In this document: positions 5,795 to 64,000 of the stretch, in pieces
Layout of the letters: every line of letters starts with the position of its first letter
Position numbering within the stretch: position 1 is the stretch's first letter
Assembly (NCBI GenBank): GCA_964057225.1
Contig: OZ059897.1
Span: 10,230,001 to 10,294,000 of the forward strand
Origin: Auanema rhodensis
Lineage: Eukaryota; Animalia; Nematoda
Direction of reading: 5' to 3'
DNA: 64,000 bases
Translations under genes and position numbers: made by a program
Notes under the pieces: model-generated
The model's input: the letters and a program-made list of their open reading frames with translations, nothing else
Databases searched by the model: none
What the model was told of the DNA's origin: nothing

Positions 5795-6933
5795 AAATTC
5801 AAAAGGAGAGAGGTAGGTGGATGGAGTATTTAAGTTTTTAGAATTAAATTCAAAAACTTGGCGTACCTCTGGTGATCCTTGTTCCTGATCTTTGTTTTCC
5901 TCGCTGATGTCCGAGTCCGACAGGGTGGCTGGTGAATACAGTTAGATGAATATAAGAGCGCGTACTGGAAGCAACTAGACTCCAGTAAAAACGTTTGTGA
6001 CAATGGCGTCTGATGAAGGAGGATCGTTGAAGCTTCAAGCTCCGCCTCCAGCCATGTGTCACGACACCAGATGTTAGCGCTTATGGTAAACAACCATTGA
6101 CCGTCTGTCGTGATATTTGAATATTATAATCACTTATGTCAGCTTAGAGACAAATAAGGAATCACAGATGGTGCCTTAAGCCTGTTTGAAAACTTTTGAA
6201 TTTTAACAGCTGTTATTGACTACACATATCGAACAGCTGGTACGCGTGGGCCAACTATTTGAATGTGAGTAAGCTTAAAGTAAACAAAAATGTCTCATCT
6301 CGTATATTAAGTTCAATTTTATAAAGTTTATTAAGATTTGTAGAAAGAATTTCAAAATAAATCTTAATTAAGATAATTTTTAATTTAATTTCAAAAGATT
6401 TAGAAGGTAATTTAAGATTGATATAGGAATTTAAATTCAGTAATCTGTCAATAATATAGGAAAAAGGAAACGTTGGCAGACGTAGAGTGGACTTGGGTGG
6501 GTAGGAATTTAAATATTCTTATTATCTCTGAACTAATAAGAAAAGAGTTAACAGGAGTAGAACCCTGATGAACCCTTGGATGTGAATCAAAATCAAAAAT
6601 CGTAAATAAAATTATCCCAACAGCCTCCAGCTTCCAAACAACTCAGCTAAAAAGTGAGCTCTGTTGCCACACTGGACATTCACATCATAAAGTAATGAAT
6701 CAAAATAGCACGCGCGTGCATAACAAAAAGGTAACGCTCGTCAAAACTATTGTCTGATAGTTTCCCCAAACGTCTCAGACACCTCCCAGTTTTCGTTGAG
6801 CGGAGGAGAAGTGGTAGCCAAAATAATTTTTGGGGAAATCATGGTGCACGGCTCGGTTACTCCTCACTGTTGGGTAATTAAGTCCAAAAGTCTCGTAAAC
6901 TTGCTGTCAATAAATTAACAGTAAAGTAAGCAA

Positions 6934-6946
6934 GGTGGAACCTCCA
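6934..6946 (-). promoter_or_regulatory. Primer-binding site of E1, complementary to tRNA-Gln 3' end
   Basis: TGGAGGTTCCACC directly after the LTR end ...ATGTAACG. Eukaryotic tRNA-Gln ends ...CTCGGTGGAACCTCCA. Confidence 0.85.
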
Positions 6947-7330
6947 CGTTACATATTGTTTCTTCCCGTCTTTTCATGGTCGGAAGATATATGTACTTCT
7001 ACCTTGTTCCTTAGGTAGGCAGACCCGAACGACCCGATTTCCTTATTAAGACAAATACTTAAAGCGAAAAGGATTCATTATCAGATAACAAGAAAATACA
7101 ATATAAGAATTACATTAAGAAAGAATATAAAGAGATATAATAAAGTATTAAATAGAGTATATATATAGATGATATAGAGATGAGACTCACATGGCTATAA
7201 GACAACCTATATGGGTTAGGCCAGAAGCAAGAGTGCCATGTGTGTCCCATGTTGTGGGCGGGGCTTGTTCAGGCTCCCGCTATTTGAATAGCGCGCACAT
7301 GTTTACCATATGCTTGCAGATGTGACAATG
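6947..7330 (-). repeat. E1 5' LTR (outer terminus apparently clipped)
   Basis: Abuts the PBS. Inner end is CGTTACATATTG on +; outer end GACAATGT resembles its inverted repeat but merges into array sequence ATGTTTATAGC. Confidence 0.65.
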
Positions 7331-28632: not shown

Positions 28633-28990
28633 CGTTCCGTTATGCTCCCGCGTCGATCTTACAGACCAATGGAGTCTACAAGATGAGCGTGGTAGTATTC
28701 CAGATGTAGCGGTTAAACATGGAGCATAAGGATAAACATAAGACTCGAGAAAGATTGGTTTATTATATCTACGTGATTACAATAAGATACATATAACTAA
28801 GTAAAGGTTAAACTAATAGAGAACAGAGAGAGAACGACCAACCATCCATGATCGTCCCTGAGGAAAAGCTGAAGTGTTGTAATATGGAAAAGGGCGGGTC
28901 GTCTTCTCTCAGTCTCGCATTCTCTGACTCTAACCCACCTGCTACAGCTTCGTCATATGAATGTAATGCATTGATCATTCGAATGGAACG
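28633..28990 (-). repeat. E2 3' LTR
   Basis: Direct repeat of 34813-35170; termini CGTTCC...GGAACG. Confidence 0.97.
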
Positions 28991-29286
28991 TGCCCTTTTT
29001 CGAGTTTATGTCGCGTCCTCGCGACAATCAAAAGTTTTGACTTGATTAACTGTAGCAGAAGGGTTAATGTGTGTATTAAAGTACATGTTACAATACAATA
29101 TTTTACGTAAAATTCTTATAATATGAACATAATACAATATAAAACATCAGTATCTGAAAAGAATTAAAAAAATTTTTAACCAAATTATGAAAGTTTTAAC
29201 CCTCTTTAACGAATACTAGACTATGTTTTACTAGTATTACTTTAAAGAAAGTTATTACAAAACAACTTACAATAAAATCTCATGAG

Positions 29287-33303: not shown

Positions 33304-34799
33304 CTTGCTAGAACTCTTGGTTTGAAAAAACCTTGAGTGCTTGGTAACGTGTGGGATGTTGAGACGTTAAAGAATGCGGTGAATAAGGATGAGGATGTAG
33401 GCAAAATGAGAAAGGCTTTGGAGAGCGACCGGTGTCGTATCGACAACTTGTGAGAATGAGGTCGATGCCTTGGCCAATGGCGATGGATCCGCCTTCTACT
33501 GTGTGATATCGGGACTCTGGTGCTCTCCGTATTTTCTCTGTAGTTGAAAATCTGATTCACAAAACATCTGGGGTGACCAAGCTCTTATTTTACAAAACGT
33601 TTAGTGTAATTCGTAATATTCGTTCAATTACAGCACATTTTACTGATTTGTATGCAACCATTTTCCTCATGCTGACTAAACTTATGTTTTGTTACACTAG
33701 TTTCTCGACCATGTGGTGTGTCATCTTGCAACAAAACTTATGGTGTAATTCGTAACATGCTTTTGATAAAAGAGCAGTTTAACAATAAATGTGCACCAAT
33801 TTCTCTTTTGTGACCAAAAATAATTTTTGTTTCTTTACAATCTGGTTTTCAAATACATTTGGTGTAGCTCACATGTTTTGTTGTAACAAAAGTCATGGGA
33901 TTCGTAATATTAGTTTTACAAAAGAGCGTTTCGCAATGATGAATGTAGGTATTTCGTGATCAGAAATCGAATTTTGAAAAAAAAGCAGAGTTAAATGGCT
34001 AAATATTACAAGAACTAGTATTAAAGTTGGAATAAGGTTCAATGCGTGAGTCTTATGCTTCTGAACAACAATAACGGTATGAGGAAGGTGACATTCAGTA
34101 AGGGGAGAAAATCCAAACCGATATGCTTTAGCCAACACGACCTGTGTTAATCATGATTCAAATTCGAGATAACATTTTTCAACAGGATTTTTCGGACTAT
34201 AGCGATCTATAAATTAACAATCCTCCCTTTTTGGTGAGGTTTCCCGTGTAATTTTTTTCATGCGTACTGATTATAAATTTAGGATGTTAGAAGCAAAATT
34301 TGTCTGAACGAAATCGTAACGCAAAATAAAATAGTCCTGATCGCAAAACAAACTTCATCCACGAAATATAAAGATATAACCGAAGTTATTCTTTCCTTGA
34401 AGCCAAAATTAATTCTTAAAAGGAGAAGGCGTGGGAAATACAAACTAACAATTACTTTAGGTGAATTTGTTCACTAATTCAGCCTAAAGCCCTCATCAAG
34501 CTTCAAGGTTGGGTAACAGAGCATTTCAGATGTTATAAGCAAGGATACGAAATTTAAAGGTTCAGACGAAAGAATTTTTGTGAACAAACGGGAAAATAAT
34601 AATCTCGAAACGTATAATCCTTCTTTAAAAAAAAAGGATTCCTTGCCTCTGTTCCCATTTAACGTTGTTGGCCCCTCCGTATTGTGTTGAGACATAGAGT
34701 AGATGGTATGAGAAAAAGAGAGATGAAAGAGATTTGAAAATAAATTAACAACACAAACATTAGAGAGAAGGAAGAAAAAAAAATTTGTGATAAGTTCGA

Positions 34800-34812
34800 G
34801 GTGGAACCTCCA
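34800..34812 (-). promoter_or_regulatory. Primer-binding site of E2 (tRNA-Gln)
   Basis: TGGAGGTTCCACC directly following the LTR end GGAACG. Confidence 0.9.
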
Positions 34813-35170
34813 CGTTCCGTTATGCTCCCGCGTCGATCTTACAGACCAATGGAGTCTACAAGATGAGCGTGGTAGTATTCCAGATGTAGCGGTTAAACAT
34901 GGAGCATAAGGATAAACATAAGACTCGAGAAAGATTGGTTTATTATATCTACGTGATTACAATAAGATACATATAACTAAGTAAAGGTTAAACTAATAGA
35001 GAACAAAGAGAGAACGACCAACCATCCATGATCGTCCCTGAGGCAAAGCTGAAGTGTTGTAATATGGAAAAGGGCGGGTCGTCTTCTCTCAGTCTCGCAT
35101 TCTCTGACTCTAACCCACCTGCTACAGCTTCGTCATATGAATGTAATGCATTGATCATTCGAATGGAACG
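34813..35170 (-). repeat. E2 5' LTR
   Basis: Direct repeat of 28633-28990; abuts the PBS. Confidence 0.97.
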
Positions 35171-48104: not shown

Positions 48105-48441
48105 CGTTCCGTTATGCTCTCACGTCGATCCTATAGACCAATAAAGCCTACAAGATGAGTGTGATAGTATTCCAGATGTAGCGGTAGATAAAGAGCATAA
48201 TGGATAAACATAAGACTCGAGAAAGAAAGGTTTATTATGTCTACATGATTACAATAAGTTATATAAGTCTACATAAAGATATAAAGTGAAAGAGAGCTAA
48301 GAAAGGAAGACCAACCATCCATAGTCATTCCATAAGGCAAAGCTGAAGTCTGTGTTCCATATGAAGGGCGTGTCGTCCTCTCTCAGCCTCATGTCGTCTG
48401 ATTCTAACCCGCCTGCTACGTATTGATTTCCGAATGGAACG
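48105..48441 (-). repeat. E3 3' LTR (337 bp)
   Basis: CGTTCCGTTATGCTC...GAATGGAACG, alignable with the E2 LTR; adjacent purine tract AAAAAATGGCA on the minus strand. Confidence 0.93.
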
Positions 48442-49137
48442 TGCCATTTTTTCGAGTTTATGTCGCGTCCTCGCGAATAGCAAAATATGTGGCTTGTTCC
48501 AATCGTAGCAGAAGGTTTAGTTTTAAAAAATAAAAATTACAATGTTAACATAAAAATAGTAAAGATAAATTACAATATAATGTTAAACAATATTATCTGA
48601 AAAGAATTTAATAAAAATTATTTGAAAATACATGAATATTAAGGAATAAAACAATCTTTTAGAATACCAGGGCTATATTTTGTCAGCGAAAGTGCGCAAA
48701 ATAGCTTTTTAGGCACGACGCTGCATGTCTAACTTCTTTGAGTATAGAGAAACGAGAGTCATGCTATATTATCGATGGAGCTAGCATGTTTCCTCAGCGT
48801 ATTCAAAGCGAATTGTAATAATAAAAAAAATTAAACTAAATCCCATATAATTTCCGGAATTGAATCATTAACTACTTGATAAGGACTGTTGCTCAGATGA
48901 ATATGCAATATAATGTCTCTTATCTTTCATTTCTTCTTTATTTACGGGAAATTATTTGAAATTGATGAAGTTTTATAATCATATATGCTTTGAAACTGAA
49001 ATGCTTTTTGATTATTAGCTTACATCTCGTCTTACTCAAGTTTTTCAATGATATAATAATATGAATAGCTCTGGTTTTTCAAAAGAGAGTTGATACAAGG
49101 TTTTACAATAATTTTATCAATCTCGAAGTTATTTCTT

Positions 49138-52100
49138 TCATCGTCTTCTTCTTGGTGGTAGCCAATTTTGGTCCGATGGGTCTTCTAGTTCTGTTTCTTC
49201 AGTAGAGTCATAGTTATCGTTACCATTTATGACTTTTATGATCTCAATATCGCTGTCGTCGTCCGTGTCATAAATCGTTGTATTTGATCGCGTGTTTTGA
49301 GCGATTGTATGGTCCATTTTGCGTTCAAAAAGTTTGAGATTGTCTTTGTGTACGTCTTGAATTTTTCCAAATGGATTCTTGAGTTGTACCATGTTTCCTT
49401 GAACGTTGATGACTTCAAATGGTCCATCATATGATTTGCGAAGCTTTTGACCTGGTTTATGCGCTTTAATTGCTAACATAACTTGGTCTCCTTTTCGGAT
49501 ATCTCTTTCTTCTATTCGTTGTCGTCCATCATGTTTTCTCTTCGCGGTTTCTTGATGTTTTGCAAGATTTTCTTGAATGATGGTTCTTCTTTCTCCTCTG
49601 ATATATTCGGTATTCTCAATTTCTTCCAAGATCTCTGGTTGTAATGTCTCGGGGAATAATTCTTTGTCTAATCTCATACGACTTTCTTTTCCGAATAATG
49701 CTATGTATGGAGAGATTCCTGTGGTTGCGTGTGTTATTGTATTTAACGCAAAAGTAATTTTTGGTAAATACATGTCCCAATCAGTTACGTCTTCGTTGAG
49801 ATAGTGTGTTAATCCTTCTTCTAGCGTTCTGTGTAGTCTTTCGACTTGTCCATTAGAGTTTTTCTGATGAGGGAGTGTTGGCTCGTGTTTAATGCCAAGT
49901 TTTTCACACATTTCTTCAAATTTCTTTGATACAAAATTAGATCCACGATCGGTTATTAAACGATTTGGTGGTCCAAAAATATATACGAAATTCCTGAGGA
50001 ATCTATCAATGATGACATCGGTGACAATTGTTGGTATAGCGATGGTTGTCGCCCATTTGGAGAATGAATCTTGTATTGTTAGGACATAATTGTTGTTTCT
50101 TTTTGAAGTAGGGAATGGTCCCATAATATCCATATGTATTCTCTCAAATGGTTTTGATGGTATTTCAAATTGACCCATAGGCTGAACGGTCATAGCGTGA
50201 GGATCTTTCTTCCTTTGTGCGCATTTAACGCATTGTTTTACAAAAATTGCTATGTCCGTTTGCATATTTGTCCAGCAAAATCTTCGTAGTATGGCTTCTT
50301 TAGTTTTGTTAATTCCTTGATGTGCTCCAATTGCTGGGTCTTCGTGAAATTCTTCGATAACCTTGTTGATAAGTTCGCTTTCCCTTGGTAAAATCAAAGC
50401 TGGGTGTGGTCGTTTTCTGCTTGGTTTTGTGTATAACATGTTGTCAATAACACAATAACGATCATTAGAAAGCATGTTCTTTTTCGCTCTGTATTCTATT
50501 TCGGCGATAGTTCTCTTTATCCAAGGTGTATCCTCTTGAATTGCTCTAATGTCAGGTACATTAACGAAATTAATTTGAGCTTTCGGAATTTCTTTTGTTT
50601 TCTTTTTCTTTTCCGGTTTAGGATCGTTTGCTTCATTTCCAATGTATCGTGAGAGAGCATCACAGACTTTGTTTAGTCTGCCTTCTCGGTATCTTATCTC
50701 GATATCGTATTCCTGTATGACTAATTGAAATTTTGCTAGTCTTCCAAAAAGGTCTCTACGAGTCAATAAGCTTGTTAATGGTCGATGGTCTGTGATACAG
50801 ATTGTATGTGATCCAAGTATATATGTTCGAAACTGAGCTAAAGCGTATACGAGTCCTAACGCTTCTATTTCAATAGGAGCATAGTTACGTTCTGCTTTTA
50901 CAAGTTTACGGCTCGCAAATGCAATTGGATGTAAGTTTTTGAGTGGTTCATTGGGATCTTCAGGTTGTAATAACACTGCTCCCACTGCGATATTACTACC
51001 GTCACTTTCTATAATGAACATACGGTCTGATCTTGGTGGTTTTAAGACCGGTGCTTGGATCAATTTTCTTTTTAGTGTATCAACAGCTTGTTGACTTCTG
51101 TCATTCCATTGAAATTCCACATCAAGTTTTGTAAGGTCGTATAAAGGGCTTGCGATGTGTGCAAAATCCTTAATAAATTTCCGAAAGAATCCTACCATTC
51201 CCAAAAATGCTCTTACTCCTGTAGGTGACTTTGGAGCAGGATAGTCTTGAATGGCGGATACTTTCTGTGGATCTGGTTTGACCCCATCTCTTCCGACAAT
51301 TAAACCAAGAAATTTTACTTCAGGTCTTGCAAAAGCGCATTTCTTGAGTTTTATTTTCATGCCTAATTTCTTTACTTCTCTGAGAATCTCAGCTATATCG
51401 TCAAGATGTTGTTCTGCAGTATCTGATATAACGAGTAAATCATCCAAATAAACAAAGAGTCGGCATTTACATCTGCTTTGAAGGTATCGTACTGCTGTTT
51501 GAAAGGTATGTGGCGCTCCACATAACCCCATAGGCATCCTTCTATATTGATAAGTACCGGTGTTTGTTGTAAATGCTGTTAATGGTCGATCTGATTTCTT
51601 TAATGCTATTTGGAAGAATCCGGATACTAAATCAAAGTTAGAAAAATATTGTGATCCGGCTGCCATATCGACAATGTCAGAGATGTTAGGTATGATGTAC
51701 GTTTGCTTGCGAGTGACGTTATTTAGAGCACGGAAATCGGTTACGAAACGGAATGTTTCATCTTTCTTTTTGACTAAAACTACAGGACTATTGAAAAGAG
51801 ATGTGGATGGTTCAATTATATTTTGCTTCAGCATCTCCTGTACCTGTCTTTCGACTTCTTCTTGTTTGCCTATAGGGATACGCGTTATACGCGGTCTAGG
51901 CATGTCCATATCTGTTCTTAGAGGTATTGAATGCTCTACAGGTCCTTTAAATAGTCCTATTTGTTTATCCTCATTTAAAAATGCATCTCTATTACGGAGA
52001 ATACAAAGCTGAAGAAGATCTTTTTGTTCTTTAGTTAGGTCGGCGTCTTTTAAATCAAGATCGTTCATAAAGTCCTGAGGGAAATGAGGTAATTTATTTT

Positions 52101-54396
52101 CCCAATCCGCTTCAGGTGGTATATAGTCTGGATTGTGTTCGGTCGTAAAGATCTCGTATTGTGGCAGTACGCCTATTTTTGCTTTGTCAATAATGTTTCC
52201 GGGTGATAGATCTATAGGATGATCAGTGTTGTTTTTGAATGTCATGGTAATTGAATTGACGTCTCGAAATGCTGTTTCGTAGGTGGTAGATATCGTCTTT
52301 TCTTCATCGGGTTGTAGCACGGCGACTTCGTTGTGTGATATGGGTTCAGCTAACCTTACTGGTATTCTACAGGTCTGATGAGGAAAGATACATTGTGGAT
52401 TTAAATTTATCAAATTAATGACAAATGATGTTTTTCTGATATTCCCGTTATTTCCATTGGCTAACGGTACTACGCGGTTTCCGATTTCTAACGTTTGTTT
52501 GAATGGTCGAAGTTTCATACCGATATTTTGACGATCGAGTGTTTTCATAAAATCTAATCCAATTAATGCTGGTGATGGACAGTCTTCATCTCTTGATATG
52601 AAGAACGTATGATCTATTTCATATCCAGCGATTTCTACGGTTAAATCAATTGTTCCAAGAAATCGAAATGCTGATCCGTTTGCTGTCGTTGCAACTGATT
52701 TATCCTTTTTTACAAAATCATTCAAAGTTAAGTAATGTAATGTCGAGAGTCTGATATAACTAATTGATGATCCTGAATCCCAAAGAGTTAGGATTAGTCT
52801 ATCGTTAACAGTCATCAATAGCAGTGGTAGAGATTGGTCTTTGCGATTGGAAACTGAACAAACTATGAGCATAGCTAGTGGAACTAGAGTGAGAAACGAT
52901 GGATAGTACTGTTTCATTATGTTCCTTGGTATTGGCTGATCAGGTTGACTTACTAGCTCTAATGTTTCTTCATATGTGGGAAGATCGTTGGTTTGATCTC
53001 GGAGTTCGATATGCATGACTTGCATGCCTATTGGTTTGAAGAAATATATTTTCGCAACAAAGGCTAGTACGATCAGTATAACTACAATAATTGTAATTGC
53101 TCCGATAGTGATGAGTGTTCGTTCAATCGTTCCTGCTATTGTATCGACAAATGAATTCCATGTACTTTTGGTGAATTCATTGGCTTTGGAGATGTAATCA
53201 CTACTTTTCTTCAATATGCTGAATGCTGATGATATTTTTGGATCATGATGAATTGTGTGAAGCACGTGATTTTGACGAATCGATGCTAAACTAGCACCAT
53301 AAGCAATGGCTGTTGTCATTGAGTACACTCGAGATGATAAGTTGGTGTATAAGTGTGCTCCGGTGAATTTTAATGGCGTGATCTTTTCATGATGAAGTCC
53401 GTCCCACATGGATATAAGACTGACGTCTACAGTACCATTAATTCCTTTCCATTCACCGTCTGTTGACCATACGTCTGTTGGTACGTGATCACAGTTAATT
53501 TCTTTACCATGAGGTAATAGGTCTTTCGATCCTGGTGCGGCAAACAGTAATTGTCCTTCTTGTGTTAATACTGGGGTTTCGAGATAACATGTGCCATTCA
53601 CAGTGTGATTGTGATATATAGTCTTTTGTAATACTACCGGGCAAACATGTATATGTAATATCTCGCTGCCTACAAATCTTGCGGCTATATCTTCTCTTCC
53701 CAGTATTGTACGCATAGCTATTGTTGGTTCAATTTGTAAAATTGATCTCCATAATTCAAGATACCTATTTTGGATCTCACATATTGATTCGTATGACTCT
53801 TTAAAATGTTTCTGCAGTTCTTCTTGAATCATAGTTGTAGCATATTGCAAATGATCTTGTGCAATTCTGCTTGTTATGTTTTGGCGAAACTGTTGTTCAG
53901 AGTCAACTTTTGTGGCAATGTATTGAGCATTAGCCTGTACAGACTCTATATCGGTGGCTGTAGGCGTTGATGATGCTCTATGTTTACGAATCAAAGATAT
54001 TGGTGTATATGTAGTTTCTTCCATTATTGGAATTTGTTGATCTTGATGAACAGCGTAGAGAATAGTAGTTGGCGGCGCGCGGGTCGATATTGTTGCGCGC
54101 GCGGTTGTCGTTGCGGTTGTATGGCGCGCCGTTGTTTCGGGCTGGGCCATCGATGAAGGCGCGCGCGCGGTAGTTGCTGCGGCTGCCCGAGGGCTTGTAG
54201 ATGTTTGCGGCAGTATTGCGGGATCTGTTGTGATCAGCGCCTCACGATCGATTATAGGGAGGGCTGCCATCTCGGCCGCGCCGCCTGCCGCGTTGCTTGG
54301 CGCACGCGTCGTGGTTTGCAACGATTTAAGTTGGATTTTCTCTGTCATTAATCTTTTTAACTGTTCTGATGATATTCTACTAGATGTATTAGGCAA
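49138..54396 (-). CDS. pol: E3 polyprotein C-terminal part: mucin-like region, gB-like glycoprotein, TM, protease, RT, RNase H, integrase
   Basis: LWRSILQIEPT...AARFVG...C...CYLETPV; TM ITIGAITIIVVILIVLAFV; LWDSGS (52771-52779); YLDD (51439-51450); IESDGS...TDHRPL; HHCC/DDE/GPF integrase. PR-RT-RH-IN order is Ty3/Gypsy. Confidence 0.93.
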   Translation of the reverse strand: MPNTSSRISSEQLKRLMTEKIQLKSLQTTTRAPSNAAGGAAEMAALPIIDREALITTDPAILPQTSTSPRAAAATTARAPSSMAQPETTARHTTATTTARATISTRAPPTTILYAVHQDQQIPIMEETTYTPISLIRKHRASSTPTATDIESVQANAQYIATKVDSEQQFRQNITSRIAQDHLQYATTMIQEELQKHFKESYESICEIQNRYLELWRSILQIEPTIAMRTILGREDIAARFVGSEILHIHVCPVVLQKTIYHNHTVNGTCYLETPVLTQEGQLLFAAPGSKDLLPHGKEINCDHVPTDVWSTDGEWKGINGTVDVSLISMWDGLHHEKITPLKFTGAHLYTNLSSRVYSMTTAIAYGASLASIRQNHVLHTIHHDPKISSAFSILKKSSDYISKANEFTKSTWNSFVDTIAGTIERTLITIGAITIIVVILIVLAFVAKIYFFKPIGMQVMHIELRDQTNDLPTYEETLELVSQPDQPIPRNIMKQYYPSFLTLVPLAMLIVCSVSNRKDQSLPLLLMTVNDRLILTLWDSGSSISYIRLSTLHYLTLNDFVKKDKSVATTANGSAFRFLGTIDLTVEIAGYEIDHTFFISRDEDCPSPALIGLDFMKTLDRQNIGMKLRPFKQTLEIGNRVVPLANGNNGNIRKTSFVINLINLNPQCIFPHQTCRIPVRLAEPISHNEVAVLQPDEEKTISTTYETAFRDVNSITMTFKNNTDHPIDLSPGNIIDKAKIGVLPQYEIFTTEHNPDYIPPEADWENKLPHFPQDFMNDLDLKDADLTKEQKDLLQLCILRNRDAFLNEDKQIGLFKGPVEHSIPLRTDMDMPRPRITRIPIGKQEEVERQVQEMLKQNIIEPSTSLFNSPVVLVKKKDETFRFVTDFRALNNVTRKQTYIIPNISDIVDMAAGSQYFSNFDLVSGFFQIALKKSDRPLTAFTTNTGTYQYRRMPMGLCGAPHTFQTAVRYLQSRCKCRLFVYLDDLLVISDTAEQHLDDIAEILREVKKLGMKIKLKKCAFARPEVKFLGLIVGRDGVKPDPQKVSAIQDYPAPKSPTGVRAFLGMVGFFRKFIKDFAHIASPLYDLTKLDVEFQWNDRSQQAVDTLKRKLIQAPVLKPPRSDRMFIIESDGSNIAVGAVLLQPEDPNEPLKNLHPIAFASRKLVKAERNYAPIEIEALGLVYALAQFRTYILGSHTICITDHRPLTSLLTRRDLFGRLAKFQLVIQEYDIEIRYREGRLNKVCDALSRYIGNEANDPKPEKKKKTKEIPKAQINFVNVPDIRAIQEDTPWIKRTIAEIEYRAKKNMLSNDRYCVIDNMLYTKPSRKRPHPALILPRESELINKVIEEFHEDPAIGAHQGINKTKEAILRRFCWTNMQTDIAIFVKQCVKCAQRKKDPHAMTVQPMGQFEIPSKPFERIHMDIMGPFPTSKRNNNYVLTIQDSFSKWATTIAIPTIVTDVIIDRFLRNFVYIFGPPNRLITDRGSNFVSKKFEEMCEKLGIKHEPTLPHQKNSNGQVERLHRTLEEGLTHYLNEDVTDWDMYLPKITFALNTITHATTGISPYIALFGKESRMRLDKELFPETLQPEILEEIENTEYIRGERRTIIQENLAKHQETAKRKHDGRQRIEERDIRKGDQVMLAIKAHKPGQKLRKSYDGPFEVINVQGNMVQLKNPFGKIQDVHKDNLKLFERKMDHTIAQNTRSNTTIYDTDDDSDIEIIKVINGNDNYDSTEETELEDPSDQNWLPPRRRR

Positions 54397-55410
54397 ATAT
54401 TATCGTTTAGTAGTGGTAAAAATATTTCCAATAATAAGTCCTTAGAGATGTTGTTGGGCTCTATGAGCTTGGGATGTGGTCCAATTGGTATTCCAAAATT
54501 ATTCTTGATGTCATAGAACAATTTATCAGTATCAAGTACAAACATTCGTGAAGATGGAAGGTTTATAAATTTTATGTCATCAATATCAGCTGCTGTTTTA
54601 TTTCTTCTAAGCGTAACGAGAGTTTTTAGCTCATGTACAAGGTCAATTGTATCTTTTATAAATTTACTGTTTCTTTCTTCTTGATCAGTTAATAATTGTT
54701 TCCTTATTGGTGGCATTTTTACGAATGCTTTTAATATTTCTTGTCTTGATGGAACTGTTAATTTGTCTTCAATTATAACTGGTGTATTGGCTAAATCAAG
54801 AGCAATAGTTTCAGCACGCTCTCGATAAGTGCCTTCTTTTGTACGAATTAACCGATCAAATTCAATAACGGTCAAACGATCTGATATTTGTTGAAGAAGT
54901 TGCCTGGATGTTAAATAAGATATTCCAGCTTTAGTAGCTAAAGCTAATTCTCTTTGAGCAACGTATTGTAAAATGGCTTCGTCTTTATCACGGAAATCAT
55001 ATTGCTTGAGGAAATGTCTTAAAGATTTCTCATAAATTTGAATTTTAAAGAAAAATTCAAAATTTTCACGATGGGCTATTATCCATTCTTTCAAGGAATA
55101 TGTAGGGTCTACCATACGTCTTCCTTTAATTAGAGGAATAATTTGTGTAATTCCTGGATTACTCATAAGTGGTCTTAAAAATGGATATGGGCAAATTCGA
55201 AGCGTGTACGTTTCAAAATCTTCAACTTCATTTATTCTATCCTGATCGAATGGGAATGAGCATTTTGTAGAAGTTGCGCGTTTAGGTCTTTTGAACGGCA
55301 ATTTCTTAAATTCTCGTTCAATTAGGAGTGTGATATTGTTATCATTAGGATATTTGGGGAATGTTATATAATTTCCTGCTGTTGTGTGGAATGCTGGTTG
55401 TCTAAAGCAG
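54397..55410 (-). pseudogene. env: E3 glycoprotein middle segment, frameshifted relative to the downstream ORF
   Basis: CFRQPAF...KRPKR|A...AILQYVAQRELALATK aligns with E1 and E4. One extra T in ATTTG (~54394-54398) would fuse it to the 1752-aa ORF. Confidence 0.8.
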
Positions 55411-55749
55411 TGTTCCATACGTGTCTTATAAAGAAGGCGGTTGACAACGTCAACCGACTTTTGGTTAATAGAATTCAATAAGAAACTAGACCTGAACTAC
55501 TTTTTGTATAAATTCAATTATATTTGTAATTAATATTTTGCTATATAAACCCCTGAGAAAGCAACTAGGTTGGCTTTCTCATAACATGTAGTTTCATTTA
55601 TTTGATTATTGTATTTTTGCTTTTATAATAGTATTTCCATATTCTGAATAAACTTCTTTTTCTCTACTCTCTGTTATTTTACAATGGCATTCACACTATT
55701 AAAGTCCATATGGTTACCTAGCCGGAACCCTAGGAACCAATATGGAACG
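55411..55749 (+). repeat. E4 5' LTR (339 bp; second LTR outside window)
   Basis: Terminal inverted repeat GTTCCATA/TATGGAAC; length similar to E2/E3 LTRs; TATATAAA ~55542, AATAAA ~55647; the start coincides with loss of E3 env homology. Confidence 0.75.
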
Positions 55750-55770
55750 TGGAGGTTCCACCGAGATTCG
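55750..55770 (+). promoter_or_regulatory. Primer-binding site of E4 (tRNA-Gln)
   Basis: TGGAGGTTCCACCGAGATTCG, complementary to ...CGAATCTCGGTGGAACCTCCA. Confidence 0.92.
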
Positions 55771-56874
55771 TCTATAAGGGACGAATCTCTATGGACCATT
55801 GCCGCTACTTTTCTCACCTTTAAATTACTTTCTCTTTCTTTGAAATCTATTTCTACTCTAAAAATTTATCTTGATTTCATATCCAAAATTCTAATTTAAT
55901 TTTATATTTCAAACTTTCAAGTCAATTTTGTATCTAAACAAAAACTTCAATTTAATCTAGTAATTCGAATTTATCTCTAAATATCATTCTTCTAACATCA
56001 TTTCTGATATATCTATTTGAAAAAAATATCTTATACATATTATCTATTACAATCTATATTCCTACTTTATTCCTCTACTCTCCTGTATGTTAAAAGCATA
56101 TAATGCATAAAAACTCTTTTTGGAACAAGCATATCAAAATATTTAACCACGAATAATATTAAAAACTATCAATTCATGAAATATCTTAAAGACATTTATT
56201 CATATTGCAACACTTACCCATAAGTCATCTTGAAAACTTCTTATCACAAGCTAATTTTGAAAATCTATTCATAAATCATTCTGAAAACATTGATTCATAA
56301 ACAAAACCACTATTCTTGATATCTAACGCATTTTTATGAGAAAGCCCCGTAAGAAACAATACCAGACATTCTCGGGACATCGCGCGGAGGCGTACACTTT
56401 TTGATATAAGACGCGCAATCATTTGAAATTAACCCTTTTTGGTCCCATATGAGAATTAAAGAATATTTTGAAGTTGAGTGGTCCCACCTAGCAAGACCCA
56501 GGGGAACAGAAGTAACGTTAAAAGGGAACGTCTTTTGGGGGTTTGCTTAGGTAAGAGAAATCTGGAAAAGTGAGTATGAGAAGCCTGTGTACCTGATCTT
56601 GTCCATGACTGAAAAGGAGCAATACACAGACCACTGTCTCATATCTCATGCCTCTTCGAGAGATAAGAACTTGGTCCTTTGCTAAAGGTCACACGTAGTT
56701 GCGGACTCGTGTATGAACCTGACCAGGCTATTCTCCGACTAGAGACCCGCTGCAGGCTGGCCCCCTGACAGGAACAGGAGTCGCGCATACCAACCCCATA
56801 TTGTCTCTTACGTTTTGTATAAAATAAGCTCAGTCTTAGTTGGTTAATAATTTCCTTCCAGGAAACCAACAAAG

Positions 56875-59800
56875 ATGGCTGACGCAGCGAATCAAAACCC
56901 TCCGCCGGGAAATATTGCCCAAAATGCTACGAATAGCGCAGAGAAAACTCAGACAGTGGAAGCAGCACTGCATAGAAACCAAAGAAAAAGAGGACCACCG
57001 GATGCATTCCGACCAGATGCGAAATATCCGAAAACGAACGCGAAATCAAAGAAATTACCCCCTATTCCGGGTACACCGCTAACTGCTAAGAAACTTTATA
57101 CTACTGCTATTAAAACTACTAGGCATGCAATTAGCTTGAATAAGAATAAAGCATCATCCAGTAAATCCACGCCCAAACGCTCTTCTCACTCTCCAAAAAC
57201 AGTTGTTAATACCGGCACTAACACTTGTCCTCCAAATCACACTTCTCCTCAACGCCTTGTTCAAACCGCAAATGCGGAAATCCTCACCTCTCCTATTCCT
57301 AGAAACTCTCCCTCTTCCACTGATCAATCTTTGCACGGGCACTCTCTGTCTCCTGTCTCTTCTTCGTCAGACAATAACGTAAATTTGACTTCGAATGTTA
57401 CAGAGCAGAGAAGTCGCCCTCAAATGGCAGAGCAGATGGAGCAAGACAACTCTCCTATTGCAAGAGCCCACAACGTTTCTATTCGCCATCACAAACCTAC
57501 GCTTTATGATGGATCGGTTCCATTCAACCTCTACATGCAAAGACTAGAAGGATATTTCGATGCCCTTCAAGTCCCTATTGCCGAGAGACTTTCCCATCTC
57601 TATCTACTTCTCGGAACGGATAGAGCCGCTGAAGCTCTTCGAACTATACCAGCAGAAGACTTACGCCAGGGATGGAACCACGTCAAACGCATACTATCGG
57701 AGAAATTACAACCTCCAGAAAAGAGAGATGCAGCATTCACAAAACTCACTCATTTGAAACAAGGAGAGCACGAAACGGTACAAAATTTCGCTCAACGCTG
57801 CAGAAACCTTGCCTACGAATCATGCAACATGGACTCGACAGCCGATGAAAGAATACTACGAGTTTCATTCTTAGGAGGACTACGAAAGACTTTAAGAACA
57901 CATGTCAATAACCGCAGCCCTATCACCTTTGATGCAGCCGTGACTATTGCCGAAACTGTGGAAGCTGACGAGGATCCTTCGCTCTTGGTCAACAACTTGA
58001 TTAAAGACGTGGAACAACTAGAGATTAATAATGGTCTCATAAACCACATGAGAGCATCACAACAGGAGAAAATCTATGACGGATCACAAACACACCAATC
58101 AAGAACATTCTATGGAAATCAATCAAGACCACAACACCCACAAGAGCAATGGAATCAAAGAAGAGGAGGATACCGCTCACCAAGATACCAAGAGGATCGA
58201 CAAAATAACCGTCACAACTTCAGACAGGATAACAGAAACAATGGATATCAACGAGGATACAACAATTATCGTAGCCCCCAACGGTACGATAGATACAATG
58301 ATCGATACAACAGCAGAGGAAACGATCGATATGATAGCAGAAGGAATGATCGACAGGAGCACAGAGGAAACGACCGATACAACCGCGGAAACTGTCCTGA
58401 TCGCGGATTTCAACAACGAAATCGCAGCACTTCATATGGACCACATAACAGGCACAGAGATCGCACAAGAAGCCCCAGCGTCCGTTTTCACGTTAACAAA
58501 GTAGAAAAGGAAACAATCAAAACAAAGAAGACACTTCCGTTCATACCGCTATTCTTATCCGTCATCGCCCTATCTATGATACCTTGCCAGGCAGATAATA
58601 CCTATCAACTCTGCATTGGCAAACGAGGAGGCATTTTCCTCGAACCACCTCGCCCAACCACCTGCTCAGACTATGCACACAAGGACGGAGTCGAGATAAT
58701 AACAGTGGAACTATTCGCAGAAAATATGAATTACAAGGAATGGGAAGCATGGAAATGCGCCAAGGAAATCTATAAAACGTGCGCCCACGACTTATTCTTC
58801 GTCAGGGAAAATAACGTTACATTACTCCGAATAGAACCAGCCACTCCACAAGAATGCCAAACAGCCATTCAAGAAAGACGACACATGGATAACGACCTCA
58901 ATCGCGAAGCACCAGGACTATTCAAAGCCCCTATGCCATCTAGTACACAATCAAAATCGTTTTGGGCATCCTCTTGCACAACCAAGTCAAGATTCACCTT
59001 AGAAAGAGGAATGATGACTAGCCTACACGATGACACTATAATCTCCGACTTATTCATCAACACTGAAGGATGCACTAAGCAACAAGGAGTATGCAACACC
59101 ACCAACGCAGTTATCACATGGATCCCACCCAATGATCATCGAAATTGCGACTACACGACATTAGGGAAATTCGAAGCACTAATCAACAATGATACTGTAT
59201 TAATCTCGGAAATACAAGGAGCATTCATTCTCAAAAACAACACGCCAGACCCTATAGCTACAAGATGTATGAATACAAGCATCTACTCAACTGATAGTGG
59301 TACGTACATTTCCATCAAGGACTTAAAAACACACCGACGTCAAAAGAGGATGGCACCCCAAGAATACCCTACGAGATTCTTCAATATCACTATCTACAAA
59401 TCACTTCGCCTCACAGACAGTTCTACAGGTATACTACCTATGTACCAGACATATCGAAATAGGAAAAGACTGGACAACGCTTATAACCTTATGGAATATC
59501 TCAAGACATCTAGCGTACACATAGGTTTCATCAAATTCCTACAACTAGATTCATCAAAACTGAAGAACCGACTCTTATGGCACAACTACACTGACATCAA
59601 CATGGTTATCCTGCACACACTTGCAGAAGCTGAGATTCGACTTTCTACGAAAATTGCCATCGAACACCTACTGCCATCAGAGATCACGGCAAAACTCAGC
59701 AAGCAAATCACTATCAGCGACTTTGCCACACGTCTACTCAACTACGAAGGCGATTATCTCGACCGAGCAAGACAAATAGCAATTGAAATAGCTCACACAC

Positions 59801-62800
59801 CTACCACTCTGGCAACAGGAGAGACTATTCCATCAATGGAGGACTATCTGTACCAACTGTACCCACCCAGGATGACAAAACTGCCTAGATCACGCACTGA
59901 CACACAGTTCTACACCCAGATGGATCAAATACAGGAGTTTCTTGATTATCTAGAGCAAAACAATCGTCTAACTCGGATATCAAAAGAACAAAGAGAGACA
60001 GAAAATAAGAAATGGGCAGATCTCACAAAACAGGCAAATTCGTCAGCAATCGTCTTTCCCAACTATACCCTCATCTTCAACGGACACGCACAAAATTATG
60101 GGTTGCCCAAAAATCAACCTACAATCAGACCTATCACGGATGAAGACAGCAAATTATTTCAACAAGCATATCTTCAGCTCATTGAGTCACCTGGTGCTAG
60201 CCCCACAACCACCACTACTACAACCACCACAACCACTACATCGACTACCACAACAACTGCCCCGACAACTACTACTCATCGGACGTCTCCACCTCAACCT
60301 ACAACTACACCAAGGAGATATTATTATTACCAGAGTACAACAACTCCAGTAACTCCACCACCACGTCCTCTCACCACCACATCCCGCAGGGAATCTACTA
60401 GGACACTTCCAACAACTCGGACTACTACAAAGCGAGCAACAACGACCCAACCGATTGAGGAAATCAAATCTCACACTGGATCACAAGCACACCTCAATTT
60501 CCTACGAACACGAGCAGATATCATTCAAAAATACGACGATCAACTACGCCAACAAGATACAAGGTCCCACCTCCAATACTCTACGTCAAAACTAGAGGAG
60601 GAAATCTTACAATCTTTCCAAATAACAAAGAAAAACGTATGCAGAATGCAAAATAAGCAGCTACTTACCTGGTGGGCAATCCTGCAGATTAATCCGACTA
60701 TAGGAATTCGCACTATGCTTCGTCGACAGGATATTTCAGCAAAGTTTGTTGGAGAACATCTTATTTACGTCATGCCATGCACCCCTGTACAAGTAACACG
60801 TGTATACTCGGATCACAAACGAGACGATAAATGTTACCTGGAGACACCGGTAGACACGGAACATCACGGAAAACTCTTCATCACACCAGGATCAAGAGAT
60901 TTAACACCATATGCCCACATCATAGCATGCGATATGGCTACATCAGATCCCTACAGAGAAAACAATCAATGGATGAAAGATAATTCAACATTGAATGTGA
61001 CTAACTTCTCATTTTCGGATGAACTCACATCTGTAAAAATTGACCACATTAAGTTTAACAATTCCAACATATTTTCAAACCTCACGGAGTCAACATTTCC
61101 AATGGCACTGGCTATTTCCTACGGCTCTAGCCTAGCATCTTTACAAGCAACTATGCCAGGAAAATTGAAACCAGTCTTCAAACATTCTGGACTATCCAAT
61201 CTGAATCCAATAGGAATTATAGGAGGAACAGTTGGAACGACATTAATGATAGCAGATAACATATCAAACAACGCGGAGAAACAAATCACAAATTTCTTTG
61301 GATACATAGGAGAATCAATTACAGCATGGATACTAAGGACACTAGCTATTATTGGAGCAATCATCGTCACAATAGGACTCATAACTGTTACCATTTGGGC
61401 ATTAAAAATATATGCATGTACCACAAGGATACCAATCAATCAAATCACATTCAACGAACAAGACGACGAACGAAGAGGAGAGGACAAACAATTCGAATTA
61501 AAACCACTAATCACTTCTCAGCAAGAGAAATTATATACAAGAACCTCTCGATATGATCCTGACGCCCCACTATCAGATAAGGACTTTTTCGCCTATCTAC
61601 CACGGTACGCTATGAAAGAATCAAGGATTAACTACATCGGAGGATCACGACTACCTTTCGTTCCTCTCTCCATTCACAATCAGATCTTTACTGCTTTATG
61701 GGACACAGGAGCTTCTATATCATACATGAAGGAAAGTACATTTCAACAACTACCGGCAGCAACAATGGTTATGGAAAAGACAACAGCCATTGTAGCAAAC
61801 AAATCACGATTTTCTTTCCTGGGCTACACAAGAATCCCAATTATTATCGGGAAGACAGAAATCGAGCACAAAGTACTGATTTCTGCCAACAACCACTGCC
61901 CAGCACCAATATTATTAGGAATAGACTTCATAGAAGCTCTCAACAAAATAGGAATAAATACATCTTTACGACCACTACAAAATTCACTACTAATTGGAGA
62001 CACAATAGTACCTTTAGCACAAGACTACGCGCCATGGACTGAGAACCACACGATAGCACACGTCGTAAGCCTGGAAACTAAACAGTTCTACCCAGGAGAA
62101 ACCAGATCGCTTACATTGGAAGTAGACGATCCCGCCTCTTACGAACAAGCTTTCATTAGAAGCTCACAGCGGACAGGAAAAATGAGTTTCGCCCCTACTA
62201 CTTTCACCCCAACGGGATATGGAGTTCAGATATTTGCTACAAATATCTCTCCAGACACAATTGTAGTACAGACAAATCAAGGCATTGGAACAGCTTACGC
62301 TATCCCGAAAAACACGGAGGAGCAAAAAGGACAATATGTGCCACCAGAAGCAAGATGGGAAGATCAACTACCATACTTCCCAGAGGACTTTATAAAAGAC
62401 CTCGATGTAACAAACACCATCTTTACTCAGCTAGAGAGACAACAGTTAAAGAAAATAGTGCTCAGAAACAAGGAAGCTTTCTTAAACGAGGATCGCAATA
62501 TTGGACTTTTCAAAGGACCAGTGGAACATAGCATCCCGATCATCGAAGGAAAAGTTCCATCTTTCAAGATCACGTACAGAATACCTCTATCACAACAAGA
62601 AGAAGTAGAAAAACAAGTGGAGGAAATGTTAGAACAAGGAATAATTGAGCCATCTTTTTCTATGACTACCAGTCCCGTAATATTGGTCAAGAAAAAGGAT
62701 AAAACGTACAGATTTGTGACTGATTTTCGAGCACTCAACGCAATAACGCAAAAACAAATCTACGTTATATCTAACATTCAAGACATCTTGGACCTAGCAG

Positions 62801-64000
62801 CCGGAGCGCGTATCTTCAGTAACTTTGATCTAGTATCTGGATTCTTTCAAATCCCTCTTAGATCAGAAGATAGACACCTCACCGCATTCACTACTACGAG
62901 CGGAACTTATCAATACTGCAGAATGCCGATGGGACTCTGCGGAGCTCCACACACATTCCAAAATGCTGTACGATATTTACAACAACACGTACGATGCAAG
63001 CTCTTCGTCTATCTCGACGATCTACTTCTCATATCGGAATCAACGACGAAACATTTACAAGATATCGACGAAGTACTGAACGCATCAGCAGAGCTAGGAT
63101 TAAAAATCAAGCTTAAGAAATGTACCTTCGGACAACAAGAAGTCAAATTCCTAGGATTCATTGTTGGACACGAAGGAATAAAACCAGACCCTCAGAAAGT
63201 AAAAGCAATCCAAGATTATCCAAGACCGAAATCAATAACAGGAGTTCGAGCATTTATGGGAGTTGTGAACTACTTTCGCAGATTTATTAGAAATGCCGCA
63301 GGCATTGCGTCACCACTTTATGAGCTCACGAAAAAGGATACAGCTTTCAAATGGGGAGATGCAGAAGAACAAGCATTTCAACAACTTAAACAGATACTCT
63401 GTCAAGCTCCTGTACTACAAGCACCTATAGCAAAACGACCTTACGTCATTGAAAGCGATGGAAGTATAATTGCAGTTGGCGCAGTACTATTACAGGCTAA
63501 AGACGACAAGGAACCACTTCACCCAATTGCATTTGCCAGCCGAAAACTGAACAAAGCCGAACGGAATTACCCGCCAATTGAAATCGAAGCCCTAGCACTC
63601 ACTTTCGCAGTACATCAATTTCGGACTTACATACTAGGCACACCAATAAGAATCATTACCGATCACAGGCCTCTTACTAGCCTCATGACAAGAAAAGATC
63701 TTATTGGCAGGCTAGCAAAATTTCAAATCGTATTACAAGAATACGACATCGAGATAGTGTATCGCCCAGGACGTCTTAACGGCGTCTGTGATGCACTTTC
63801 ACGATATTTTGAAGACGAAGTCAACGAAGCCAAGGAAAGAAAGAAGAAACCAAAAGAAACTCCTACACACAAAATCTCGACTATTTCAACTATTACGGAC
63901 CTTCGGACCATTCAAGGCAATACAGAATGGATCATGGAAACAAAAGAAAAGATTCGGAACAAAACAGCAGGAAGGCAACTAATGGATCGATATATCGTTG
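56875..64000 (+). CDS. E4 single polyprotein Gag-Env-PR-RT-RNaseH-(IN), >2370 aa, open to window end (absent from ORF track)
   Basis: ATG at 56875 after in-frame TAATAA. Segments translated by hand in this frame: PTLYDGS (57496), signal peptide ~58534-58593, WEAWKC (58741), HRRQKR (59332-59349), WWAILQINPT (60670), TM ~61339-61410, DTG (61702), YLDD (63010), TDHRPL (63658). The ORF track lists no stop-terminated ORF in this frame. Confidence 0.93.
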   Translation, partial: MADAANQNPPPGNIAQNATNSAEKTQTVEAALHRNQRKRGPPDAFRPDAKYPKTNAKSKKLPPIPGTPLTAKKLYTTAIKTTRHAISLNKNKASSSKSTPKRSSHSPKTVVNTGTNTCPPNHTSPQRLVQTANAEILTSPIPRNSPSSTDQSLHGHSLSPVSSSSDNNVNLTSNVTEQRSRPQMAEQMEQDNSPIARAHNVSIRHHKPTLYDGSVPFNLYMQRLEGYFDALQVPIAERLSHLYLLLGTDRAAEALRTIPAEDLRQGWNHVKRILSEKLQPPEKRDAAFTKLTHLKQGEHETVQNFAQRCRNLAYESCNMDSTADERILRVSFLGGLRKTLRTHVNNRSPITFDAAVTIAETVEADEDPSLLVNNLIKDVEQLEINNGLINHMRASQQEKIYDGSQTHQSRTFYGNQSRPQHPQEQWNQRRGGYRSPRYQEDRQNNRHNFRQDNRNNGYQRGYNNYRSPQRYDRYNDRYNSRGNDRYDSRRNDRQEHRGNDRYNRGNCPDRGFQQRNRSTSYGPHNRHRDRTRSPSVRFHVNKVEKETIKTKKTLPFIPLFLSVIALSMIPCQADNTYQLCIGKRGGIFLEPPRPTTCSDYAHKDGVEIITVELFAENMNYKEWEAWKCAKEIYKTCAHDLFFVRENNVTLLRIEPATPQECQTAIQERRHMDNDLNREAPGLFKAPMPSSTQSKSFWASSCTTKSRFTLERGMMTSLHDDTIISDLFINTEGCTKQQGVCNTTNAVITWIPPNDHRNCDYTTLGKFEALINNDTVLISEIQGAFILKNNTPDPIATRCMNTSIYSTDSGTYISIKDLKTHRRQKRMAPQEYPTRFFNITIYKSLRLTDSSTGILPMYQTYRNRKRLDNAYNLMEYLKTSSVHIGFIKFLQLDSSKLKNRLLWHNYTDINMVILHTLAEAEIRLSTKIAIEHLLPSEITAKLSKQITISDFATRLLNYEGDYLDRARQIAIEIAHTPTTLATGETIPSMEDYLYQLYPPRMTKLPRSRTDTQFYTQMDQIQEFLDYLEQNNRLTRISKEQRETENKKWADLTKQANSSAIVFPNYTLIFNGHAQNYGLPKNQPTIRPITDEDSKLFQQAYLQLIESPGASPTTTTTTTTTTTTSTTTTTAPTTTTHRTSPPQPTTTPRRYYYYQSTTTPVTPPPRPLTTTSRRESTRTLPTTRTTTKRATTTQPIEEIKSHTGSQAHLNFLRTRADIIQKYDDQLRQQDTRSHLQYSTSKLEEEILQSFQITKKNVCRMQNKQLLTWWAILQINPTIGIRTMLRRQDISAKFVGEHLIYVMPCTPVQVTRVYSDHKRDDKCYLETPVDTEHHGKLFITPGSRDLTPYAHIIACDMATSDPYRENNQWMKDNSTLNVTNFSFSDELTSVKIDHIKFNNSNIFSNLTESTFPMALAISYGSSLASLQATMPGKLKPVFKHSGLSNLNPIGIIGGTVGTTLMIADNISNNAEKQITNFFGYIGESITAWILRTLAIIGAIIVTIGLITVTIWALKIYACTTRIPINQITFNEQDDERRGEDKQFELKPLITSQQEKLYTRTSRYDPDAPLSDKDFFAYLPRYAMKESRINYIGGSRLPFVPLSIHNQIFTALWDTGASISYMKESTFQQLPAATMVMEKTTAIVANKSRFSFLGYTRIPIIIGKTEIEHKVLISANNHCPAPILLGIDFIEALNKIGINTSLRPLQNSLLIGDTIVPLAQDYAPWTENHTIAHVVSLETKQFYPGETRSLTLEVDDPASYEQAFIRSSQRTGKMSFAPTTFTPTGYGVQIFATNISPDTIVVQTNQGIGTAYAIPKNTEEQKGQYVPPEARWEDQLPYFPEDFIKDLDVTNTIFTQLERQQLKKIVLRNKEAFLNEDRNIGLFKGPVEHSIPIIEGKVPSFKITYRIPLSQQEEVEKQVEEMLEQGIIEPSFSMTTSPVILVKKKDKTYRFVTDFRALNAITQKQIYVISNIQDILDLAAGARIFSNFDLVSGFFQIPLRSEDRHLTAFTTTSGTYQYCRMPMGLCGAPHTFQNAVRYLQQHVRCKLFVYLDDLLLISESTTKHLQDIDEVLNASAELGLKIKLKKCTFGQQEVKFLGFIVGHEGIKPDPQKVKAIQDYPRPKSITGVRAFMGVVNYFRRFIRNAAGIASPLYELTKKDTAFKWGDAEEQAFQQLKQILCQAPVLQAPIAKRPYVIESDGSIIAVGAVLLQAKDDKEPLHPIAFASRKLNKAERNYPPIEIEALALTFAVHQFRTYILGTPIRIITDHRPLTSLMTRKDLIGRLAKFQIVLQEYDIEIVYRPGRLNGVCDALSRYFEDEVNEAKERKKKPKETPTHKISTISTITDLRTIQGNTEWIMETKEKIRNKTAGRQLMDRYIV

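Follow-up and report, generated by a model that had tools for sequence, protein, structure and literature searches.

E4, an element at the 3' end of a 64,000-nucleotide stretch of Auanema rhodensis DNA (the window), carries gag, env and pol in one uninterrupted reading frame, with env embedded between gag and pol, and it belongs to a family of retrotransposons that is already published. Every defining feature of this family that we tested was found in E4 except the usual letters at the LTR ends. We consider it probable that E4 represents a young insertion of the GAG-ENV-POL type of Ty3/gypsy LTR retrotransposon already described, and that it would produce one membrane-threaded polyprotein. In this chain the predicted gB-like Env would be lumenal, and the element's own protease (PR) likely releases Gag and Pol from the cytosolic side of the membrane. 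Our additions to the published texts are modest: a map of protease sites around env, LTRs ending in CG, and an insert within env. Comparisons with published elements refer to partial texts of the papers cited.

The E4 frame (56851-63999, + strand) is free of stops over 2383 codons and exits the window at its 3' side, while the two remaining + frames of the region contain 115 and 103 stops. Given the base composition, an open run of this length has a chance expectation of about 1e-59. The preliminary description had set the element at 56875, which is indeed the first ATG of the frame (56875..64000), but the element itself begins at 55411 with its 5' LTR. Pfam ordered the protein as Retrotrans_gag (aa ~248-337 counted from the ATG, above cut-off), Monjiviricetes_fusion (E 2e-17) together with Glycoprotein_B (E 1.6e-6, under its own cut-off), aspartyl protease, RVT_1 (E 5e-34) and RNase H (RH), with no cargo domains. 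A hydropathy scan detected exactly two hydrophobic segments, aa 552-574 and 1480-1516, on either side of a cysteine-rich glycoprotein of 937 aa (aa 574-1510), in good agreement with the ~940 aa estimated at first. The stop-free frame, the Pfam order and the two segments bear out the arrangement described earlier, gag, signal peptide (SP), env, transmembrane (TM) helix, PR, reverse transcriptase (RT) and RH.

On the Gag side, a capsid-like domain corresponding to Retrotrans_gag (aa 206-370; 57490..57984, +) precedes a low-complexity tail rich in R, N, Q and Y (57985..58491, +). Inspection of the sequence found no CCHC knuckle in E4 Gag, and this tail is likely the RNA-binding part in place of a zinc knuckle. 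On the Pol side, Pfam and motif searches placed the aspartyl protease, with its catalytic DTG and a predicted protease site at its start, at 61627..62049 (+), followed by RT (YLDD) and RH at 62560..63768 (+). The best solved relative of the RT by sequence is Ty3 RT (E 6e-81; next family 9e-45), which supports the Ty3/gypsy identity proposed at the outset. The integrase (IN) and 3' LTR of this copy fall outside the window; IN follows RH in the neighbouring element E3 and in relatives.

We compared the frame with contigs of DNA runs X1, X2 and X3, from three studies. They covered 30 of the 30 bins of 54000-64000, with no single contig across the whole stretch, and one of the runs may be the window's own source. 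None of the indels fell in the E4 frame among 12 of the 13 indel entries, and the 40 substitutions listed included 21 in the frame (10 silent, 11 missense and no stops). At 85% likeness, one run gave lower-depth diverged contigs whose indels in the E4 frame sum to whole codons (12 of 20 entries). Stops or frameshifts separating the domains, which had been named as the point to check in reads, were thus absent from the entries listed for the three studies. The sequence observation on the E4 layout is confirmed. An assembly artefact was considered as the source of the layout and rejected in view of the DNA-run contigs and the frame statistics.

The 5' LTR of E4 (55411..55749, +) is 339 bp long, has TG...CG ends and carries a short terminal inverted repeat. 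It is bounded by loose contig ends before 55411 and behind 55749, its depth is about doubled in X1 and X2, and a second LTR context of E4 is seen as loose ends in the DNA runs. A primer binding site (PBS) of tRNA-Gln type, complementary to a 12-mer of tRNA-Gln, abuts the LTR (55750..55761, +). All 12 letters are as in the rows Clat_4 and Ctro_1, two Caenorhabditis elements, of supplementary file 1 of PMC13524379, and the same 12-mer stands directly after the 5' LTRs of two further elements of the window, E1 and E2. A leader of 1.1 kb without a long ORF in the ORF list (55762..56874, +) separates the PBS from the ATG.

The three neighbouring elements, all on the - strand, belong to divergent families, with 26-31% identity to E4 over gag and the start of env. 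E1 (1682..7327; Pfam, LTR and reads) has a 5' LTR at 6947-7327, a Gln-type PBS and gag-env-TM up to the start of PR; a stop lies within its env and it ends at the first PR strand, with the 3' part gone. E2 (28633..35170; Pfam and LTR comparison) has a Gln-type PBS, a single frame at 29287-33366 and, as structural features of Ty3/gypsy elements of which E4 itself displays the 5' LTR and PBS, a full pair of LTRs (99.4% identical) and a 4-bp target duplication. Through an internal deletion, its gag and the first ~200 aa of env now run in one frame into the last part of RNase H and then integrase. E3 (48105..55410; Pfam and reads) has a 3' LTR at 48105-48441, a frame at 49138-54399 encoding part of env, TM, PR, RT, RH and IN, and an upstream piece of env; a frameshift lies in env and the element is split by E4 at 55410. 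It is 44% identical to E4 over the end of env and pol. The order reported earlier for E1, E2 and E3 is therefore present, but every one of these copies is broken.

Relatives were collected with HMMER, as a word-seeded env search returned 1 protein among 7979 candidates and a profile search was required. The env profile matched 254 proteins at E<=0.001, and 11 of the best 150 of these 254 carry gag-env-(PR)-RT-RH-IN in one chain. An RT search added 9 among 65 further proteins, which makes 20 of the 215 retrieved. These relatives are predicted database proteins and may include spliced gene models. Those with a named source belong to Caenorhabditis (brenneri, japonica, remanei, nigoni and auriculariae), Auanema, Acrobeloides, Diploscapter, Oesophagostomum, Panagrolaimus and Meloidogyne, in line with a likely rhabditid host for E4. 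The E4 RT is 76% identical to that of an Auanema protein and 54-66% identical to those of Heterorhabditis, Caenorhabditis and Diploscapter proteins. In a FastTree phylogeny of 84 RT domains, rooted at the midpoint and built without the sequences catalogued in PMC13524379, E4 is sister to the Auanema protein (support 0.998) and falls inside a group of 37 members (support 0.87); env precedes RT in 33 of them, including proteins of Caenorhabditis, Meloidogyne and Panagrolaimus. The claim that gag-env-pol order is a family trait is borne out by these counts. Seven further env-before-RT proteins fall outside the group, in agreement with the statement in PMC13524379 that the order is not monophyletic. 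The same env family also occurs at the C-terminal end of 8 proteins, five of them BEL/Pao by Pfam. A metagenome scan gave 80 loci of generic gypsy type, 31-42% identical in their best segment, and env matched none of them by profile or by tblastn.

Env is preceded by a predicted internal signal peptide (aa 552-573; 58528..58593), assigned by hydropathy and by comparison with relatives. Domains I-II (58594..59337), beta-rich and cysteine-rich, form a predicted class III fusion module according to the predicted model and its fold matches. They are followed by a furin-type site, RQKR, found by motif scan (aa 822; 59338..59349) and present in only 42 of 93 relatives, by a helical insert of ~230 aa seen in the alignment and the model (59353..60054), and by a Thr-rich, mucin-like linker predicted to be disordered (60205..60459; sequence and model). 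Pfam, sequence and fold matches place domains III-V, comprising a long central helix, a beta crown and a stem, at 60487..61314, before the TM helix predicted by hydropathy at 61330..61404; all these features are on the + strand. An AlphaFold model of the ectodomain, built from 48 sequences, reached a mean pLDDT of 71 and a pTM of 0.39, with the fold confident in domains I-IV. All PDB structures listed as matching it are herpesvirus gB, the best at E 3.7e-10, with TM-scores of 0.2-0.34 relative to the query. Its best predicted viral fold matches are rhabdo-like, orino-, nyami-, chu- and xinmoviral glycoproteins together with gB. By sequence, one gB chain matched the Env central helix (E 1.7e-4). 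Because of these gB and viral-glycoprotein matches in fold and sequence, E4 Env is predicted to be a gB-like class III fusogen.

E4 shares the helical insert with E1, E3 and the database proteins P0003, P0004 and P0153. Modelled alone, it gave a helical domain (pLDDT 75, pTM 0.73) with no usable Atlas hit and no viral fold match at E<=0.001. Against 48,161 chains the best Z was 5.1 (rmsd 4.5, 56 aligned), which is no clear match and does not by itself establish a new fold. In a by-eye comparison, the order of cysteines in domains I-II of E4 resembles that of Clat_errantivirus_4 (Nematoda_C1 row of PMC13524379). We note that Clat_errantivirus_4 is like E4 in its PBS as well as in this cysteine order judged by eye.

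One could regard env as a decaying passenger or a chance recombinant, kept in frame for the reading of Pol and no longer encoding a working fusogen. E2 fits this idea, having lost most of its env, with PR and RT, in frame while its LTRs remained near-identical, and so does the far lower conservation of env than of RT between E3 and E4 (24-27% versus 44% identity). Against it, the cysteines, the signal segment and the TM helix are retained in relatives at about 25% env identity, domains I-IV are predicted confidently, and the order is kept in 20 of the 215 proteins from several nematode genera. We consider a passenger env very improbable.

We assessed the membrane topology from two features, hydropathy and the bias in charge. 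Gag and env are separated by a signal-like segment in 46 of 47 proteins, of which the window encodes three, and in 8 of 9 held-out proteins. The database gene model P0015 is without the segment, and in two proteins the segment lies 180-190 aa from env. A TM helix separates env from PR or RT in all 42 proteins and in 19 of 19 held-out ones. Lys and Arg are enriched on the Gag (N) side of the signal in 32 of 46 proteins, with the reverse in 3, and on the Pol (C) side of the TM helix in 27 of 42, with the reverse in 4. N-glycosylation sequons show a mild excess in the lumenal part (151 versus 118 expected); the cytosolic parts have 254 versus 230. The two-pass topology suggested earlier holds up in these proteins, which fit a cytosolic Gag, a lumenal Env and a cytosolic Pol.

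A short motif, [VI]N-x-[VI], recurs at the borders of the Pol domains and around env. It was present at the PR N-terminus in 11 of 31 proteins (shuffle mean 1.3) and at the RH/IN junction in 15 of 38 (2.7). Around env, 21 of 46 proteins have it in the 45 aa that precede the signal (1.2) and 19 of 42 in the 50 aa that follow the TM helix (1.7). Lumenal controls gave 4 of 46 and 3 of 42 (shuffle means 2.5 and 3.1) and the capsid core 0 of 46. The motif had been picked after viewing this first set, and the count was therefore repeated on proteins fetched later, some of which are close kin of the first set: it preceded the signal in 6 of 8 and followed the TM helix in 15 of 19 (shuffle means 0.3 and 0.7). 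One of the lumenal controls also exceeded its shuffle mean (5 of 19 versus 1.3; 10 of 2000 shuffles). In E4, three of the four occurrences fall at the three boundaries, aa 540, 1521 and 1585. The first is a predicted cytosolic site 12 aa before the signal peptide (58492..58503, +), the second lies ~10 aa into the cytoplasmic tail of Env (61435..61446, +) and the third opens the PR segment. Since the motif marks the borders of PR and IN, we infer that it is a protease site. Ty3 protease sites have hydrophobic residues at P2 and P2'. For the Ty1 protease, the residues at P1 and P1' are reported to be hydrophilic and the S2 pocket to be hydrophobic (PMC6952103).

Because the PR-border motif recurs cytosolically outside both membrane segments, the element's own PR likely frees Gag and Pol on the two sides of env. 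The alternative is strict anchoring, in which the signal stub is never cut and goes on holding Gag, Pol remains attached to the Env tail, and any release is the work of host proteases. The two hydrophobic segments have the charge bias that such anchoring needs, and a long linker of 53-106 aa joins the tail to PR in most relatives. The motif, by contrast, lies outside both membrane segments in about half of the first set and in most held-out proteins, whereas before the signal it is present in 0 of the 8 proteins with the same env at their C-terminal end. We judge strict anchoring to be quite improbable. The preliminary description had Gag anchored by the signal peptide and Pol on the Env tail; its topology is supported, but lasting anchorage is improbable given the conserved protease-type sites that flank env on the cytosolic side, and release by the element's PR is the reading we retain.

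Regulated messages could also separate the products. Here a spliced, env-less message for Gag alone or for Gag-Pol would supply most Gag (and Pol), and the full polyprotein would give mainly Env. Capsids usually require an excess of Gag, which speaks for such messages, as does P0015, the gene model without a signal segment. The + strand of 55411-64000, however, has a single strong worm-type acceptor (TTTCAG/TTTTAG), located within env. Neither the gag/env nor the env/pol border has a useful in-frame slippery site: of three in-phase heptamers of slippery type, with -1 frames that run for 7, 19 and 86 codons before closing, none lies at a domain border where a shift would yield a useful product. 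The only long joint (1497 bp) is in DNA runs and has 30 letters on its short side. If splicing removed env, the element would have no need of protease-type sites flanking it. Taken together, we find this explanation unlikely and prefer translation of the whole frame followed by proteolysis. Among the runs taken as RNA, X13 contained one 163-bp piece, X12 two short pieces and X14 nothing, which bears neither way on expression or splicing.

In the mechanism that we propose, the single frame gag-SP-env-TM-PR-RT-RH would be translated with Gag emerging in the cytosol. The internal signal peptide is predicted to thread Env into the ER lumen, where signal peptidase would cut, and the TM helix to halt transfer, so that Pol would be made on the cytosolic face, joined to the Env tail. 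Equal synthesis of Gag, Env and Pol would follow only without a spliced or shorter message. Env trimers may then cluster the tethered Pol and Gag at one membrane patch, and budding would package all three. As the conserved motifs suggest, PR would cut at three places: ahead of the signal stub, ~10 aa past the TM helix and at the PR N-terminus. Gag and Pol would thereby be released and Env would keep a short tail. Cleavage of Env behind domain II may fall to host furin. Finally, tRNA-Gln would prime reverse transcription at the PBS, and integration would produce a 4-bp duplication such as that of E2, with LTR ends reading CG.

A broader reading, which we offer tentatively and hold to be somewhat less probable than its contrary, is that packaging takes place without a Gag-Pol fusion. 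A class III fusogen would carry Pol into the particle on its tail. Cytosolic cuts by one PR at both anchors would free Gag and Pol, and the trimming of the Env tail would act as a maturation switch like that of an R-peptide. In this sub-lineage, CG-3' rather than CA-3' DNA ends would be joined, and the helical insert of unrecognised fold may pick the target cell. The R-peptide of murine leukaemia virus (MuLV), a part of the Env tail whose cleavage at maturation is required for fusion (PMC3917443), offers the analogy for tail trimming in E4. However, MuLV Env is a class I fusogen made from a separate spliced message, whereas the E4 Env tail is the link to Pol, and an effect of tail trimming on fusion in E4 is conjecture. 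If the protease-site map holds, it would show a means of packaging RT via the envelope protein and of timing a class III fusogen with a retroviral protease.

The possibility raised earlier that the architecture had gone undescribed did not survive the literature search, since it is in print in PMC13524379 and PMC6431247. Chary and Hayashi (eLife 2026; PMC13524379) describe elements of Nematoda, Bryozoa and Platyhelminthes with only gB-type ENV and GAG-ENV-POL order, list 36 nematode entries, 8 of 36 rows with a Gln PBS, and credit Sacco et al. 2022 (J Gen Virol 103:1739; 'NERV') with nematode metavirus-type ERVs in which env and pol are flipped and an RNA-virus glycoprotein was captured. E4 is like their GAG-ENV-POL elements in its Ty3/gypsy POL, its gB-type env between signal peptide and TM helix, and its tRNA-Gln PBS right after the LTR, and it has relatives in species that they also catalogued (C. 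brenneri, remanei and nigoni, Meloidogyne enterolobii and Panagrolaimus davidi). Unlike those elements, it represents a new host genome and family, the host genus being absent from the 36 nematode rows. Their main text contains neither 'in-frame' nor 'frameshift' nor 'splic', uses 'protease' once and does not treat polyprotein processing, and we did not find the CG LTR ends or the helical env insert of E4 in the part of it consulted. Elsewhere in the literature searched we likewise found no map of protease sites around env, no CG ends and no such insert; Sacco et al. 2022 or the figures of PMC13524379 may cover some of them. The map, with three predicted sites for PR and one each for signal peptidase and furin, rests on an intact copy with close Caenorhabditis relatives and could serve these published but mechanistically unstudied enveloped retrotransposons.

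NERV members reportedly have a continuous gag-env-pro-pol ORF and an env like that of Nyamiviridae, and some are said to carry extra ORFs, in contrast to E4, in whose leader none was seen. The likeness to Nyamiviridae agrees with the viral fold matches of E4 Env. In the planarian Burro (GYPSM1), too, env lies in frame with gag before it and pol after it (Arkhipova and Yushenova 2019, PMC6431247). Burro, however, has a giant ORF of 4,873 aa with CCHC knuckles and many cargo domains, whereas E4 is compact, has no knuckle and groups with nematode relatives. The nematode BEL/Pao element Atlas encodes a single Gag-Pol-Env polyprotein without stops (PMC9094657), and one-to-one synthesis is therefore not unique to gag-env-pol elements. 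Its Env is class II, while Tas, also a nematode BEL/Pao element, has a gB-like env. BEL/Pao elements with env (Tas, Cer7/13, Atlas) differ from E4 in their RT and protease and in having env last, and Pol therefore never follows a TM helix in them. In E4, Pfam found no match to the BEL/Pao Pol domains Peptidase_A17 and DUF1759, and env precedes PR.

The LTR ends read TG...CG in E1 and E4 and CG...CG in E2 and E3, so that TG...CA, which is typical of Ty3/gypsy LTRs but not strictly defining, was found in none of the four. Among the papers listed in our literature search, none was on CG-type LTR ends or on insertion into nematode tRNA arrays. The CG ends would offer a natural test of the CA requirement of LTR integrases. 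A tRNA-His array of 332 bp has E1, E2 and E3 inside or adjoining it and E4 beside it. E4 sits within the env of E3, and the DNA runs also show E3-type sequence continuing unbroken at that point.

The related, broken elements E1, E2 and E3 lie within or beside a tandem array of tRNA-His(GTG) genes, which is built of 332-bp units with one tRNA gene per unit. The array forms two blocks (1-1670, minus strand, and 7530-48104, plus strand), so that the blocks on either side of E1 are in opposite orientation; across both, 107 tRNA-His(GTG) genes were called in the window. A 39-bp tandem duplication (7385-7461) was also observed within the tRNA-His copy adjoining the E1 LTR.

All five LTR copies in the window carry CG at their primer-side terminus, and the primer binding site abuts the LTR without a spacer. 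These copies are the LTR of E1 (6947-7327, minus strand), the pair of E2 (28633-28990 and 34813-35170, minus), the LTR of E3 (48105-48441, minus) and that of E4, the element under study (55411-55749, plus). Both ends of E2 are unambiguous because they are fixed by a 4-bp target duplication. Within the tRNA repeat unit, E2 (bounded by 28633 and 35170) and E3 (boundary at 48105) have their 3' termini at one site, 8 bp from each other, and each element is antisense to the tRNA-His gene. This shared placement and orientation hint at targeted insertion close to Pol III genes, with only two events observed.

In E2, a single in-frame deletion took out most of env, PR and RT, leaving the joined frame at 29287-33366 (minus strand). 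Despite this internal loss, the LTR pair is 99.4% identical. E2 may have been mobilised as a non-autonomous copy, or else the deletion may be later than the insertion.

Among database relatives, the gB-like env family was also found at the C-terminal end of five Tas-like BEL/Pao polyproteins (P0048, P0062, P0067, P0087 and P0113); this glycoprotein is therefore common to two retroelement superfamilies. The spacing between env domains II and III (E4 aa 815-1226) ranges from 23 to 528 aa across relatives, and in 19 of 105 this part is S/T-rich and mucin-like. In two relatives, P0010 and P0030, the protease is matched repeatedly in the stretch that separates the TM helix from RT; these repeats may be true duplications or gene-model artefacts.

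In DNA run X1, summed contig depth, a rough measure, is about twice as high over the E4 leader and gag (55748-58346) as over env and pol. Additional gag-only copies possibly account for this excess. The X1 contigs also have loose ends close to where gag of E4 ends.
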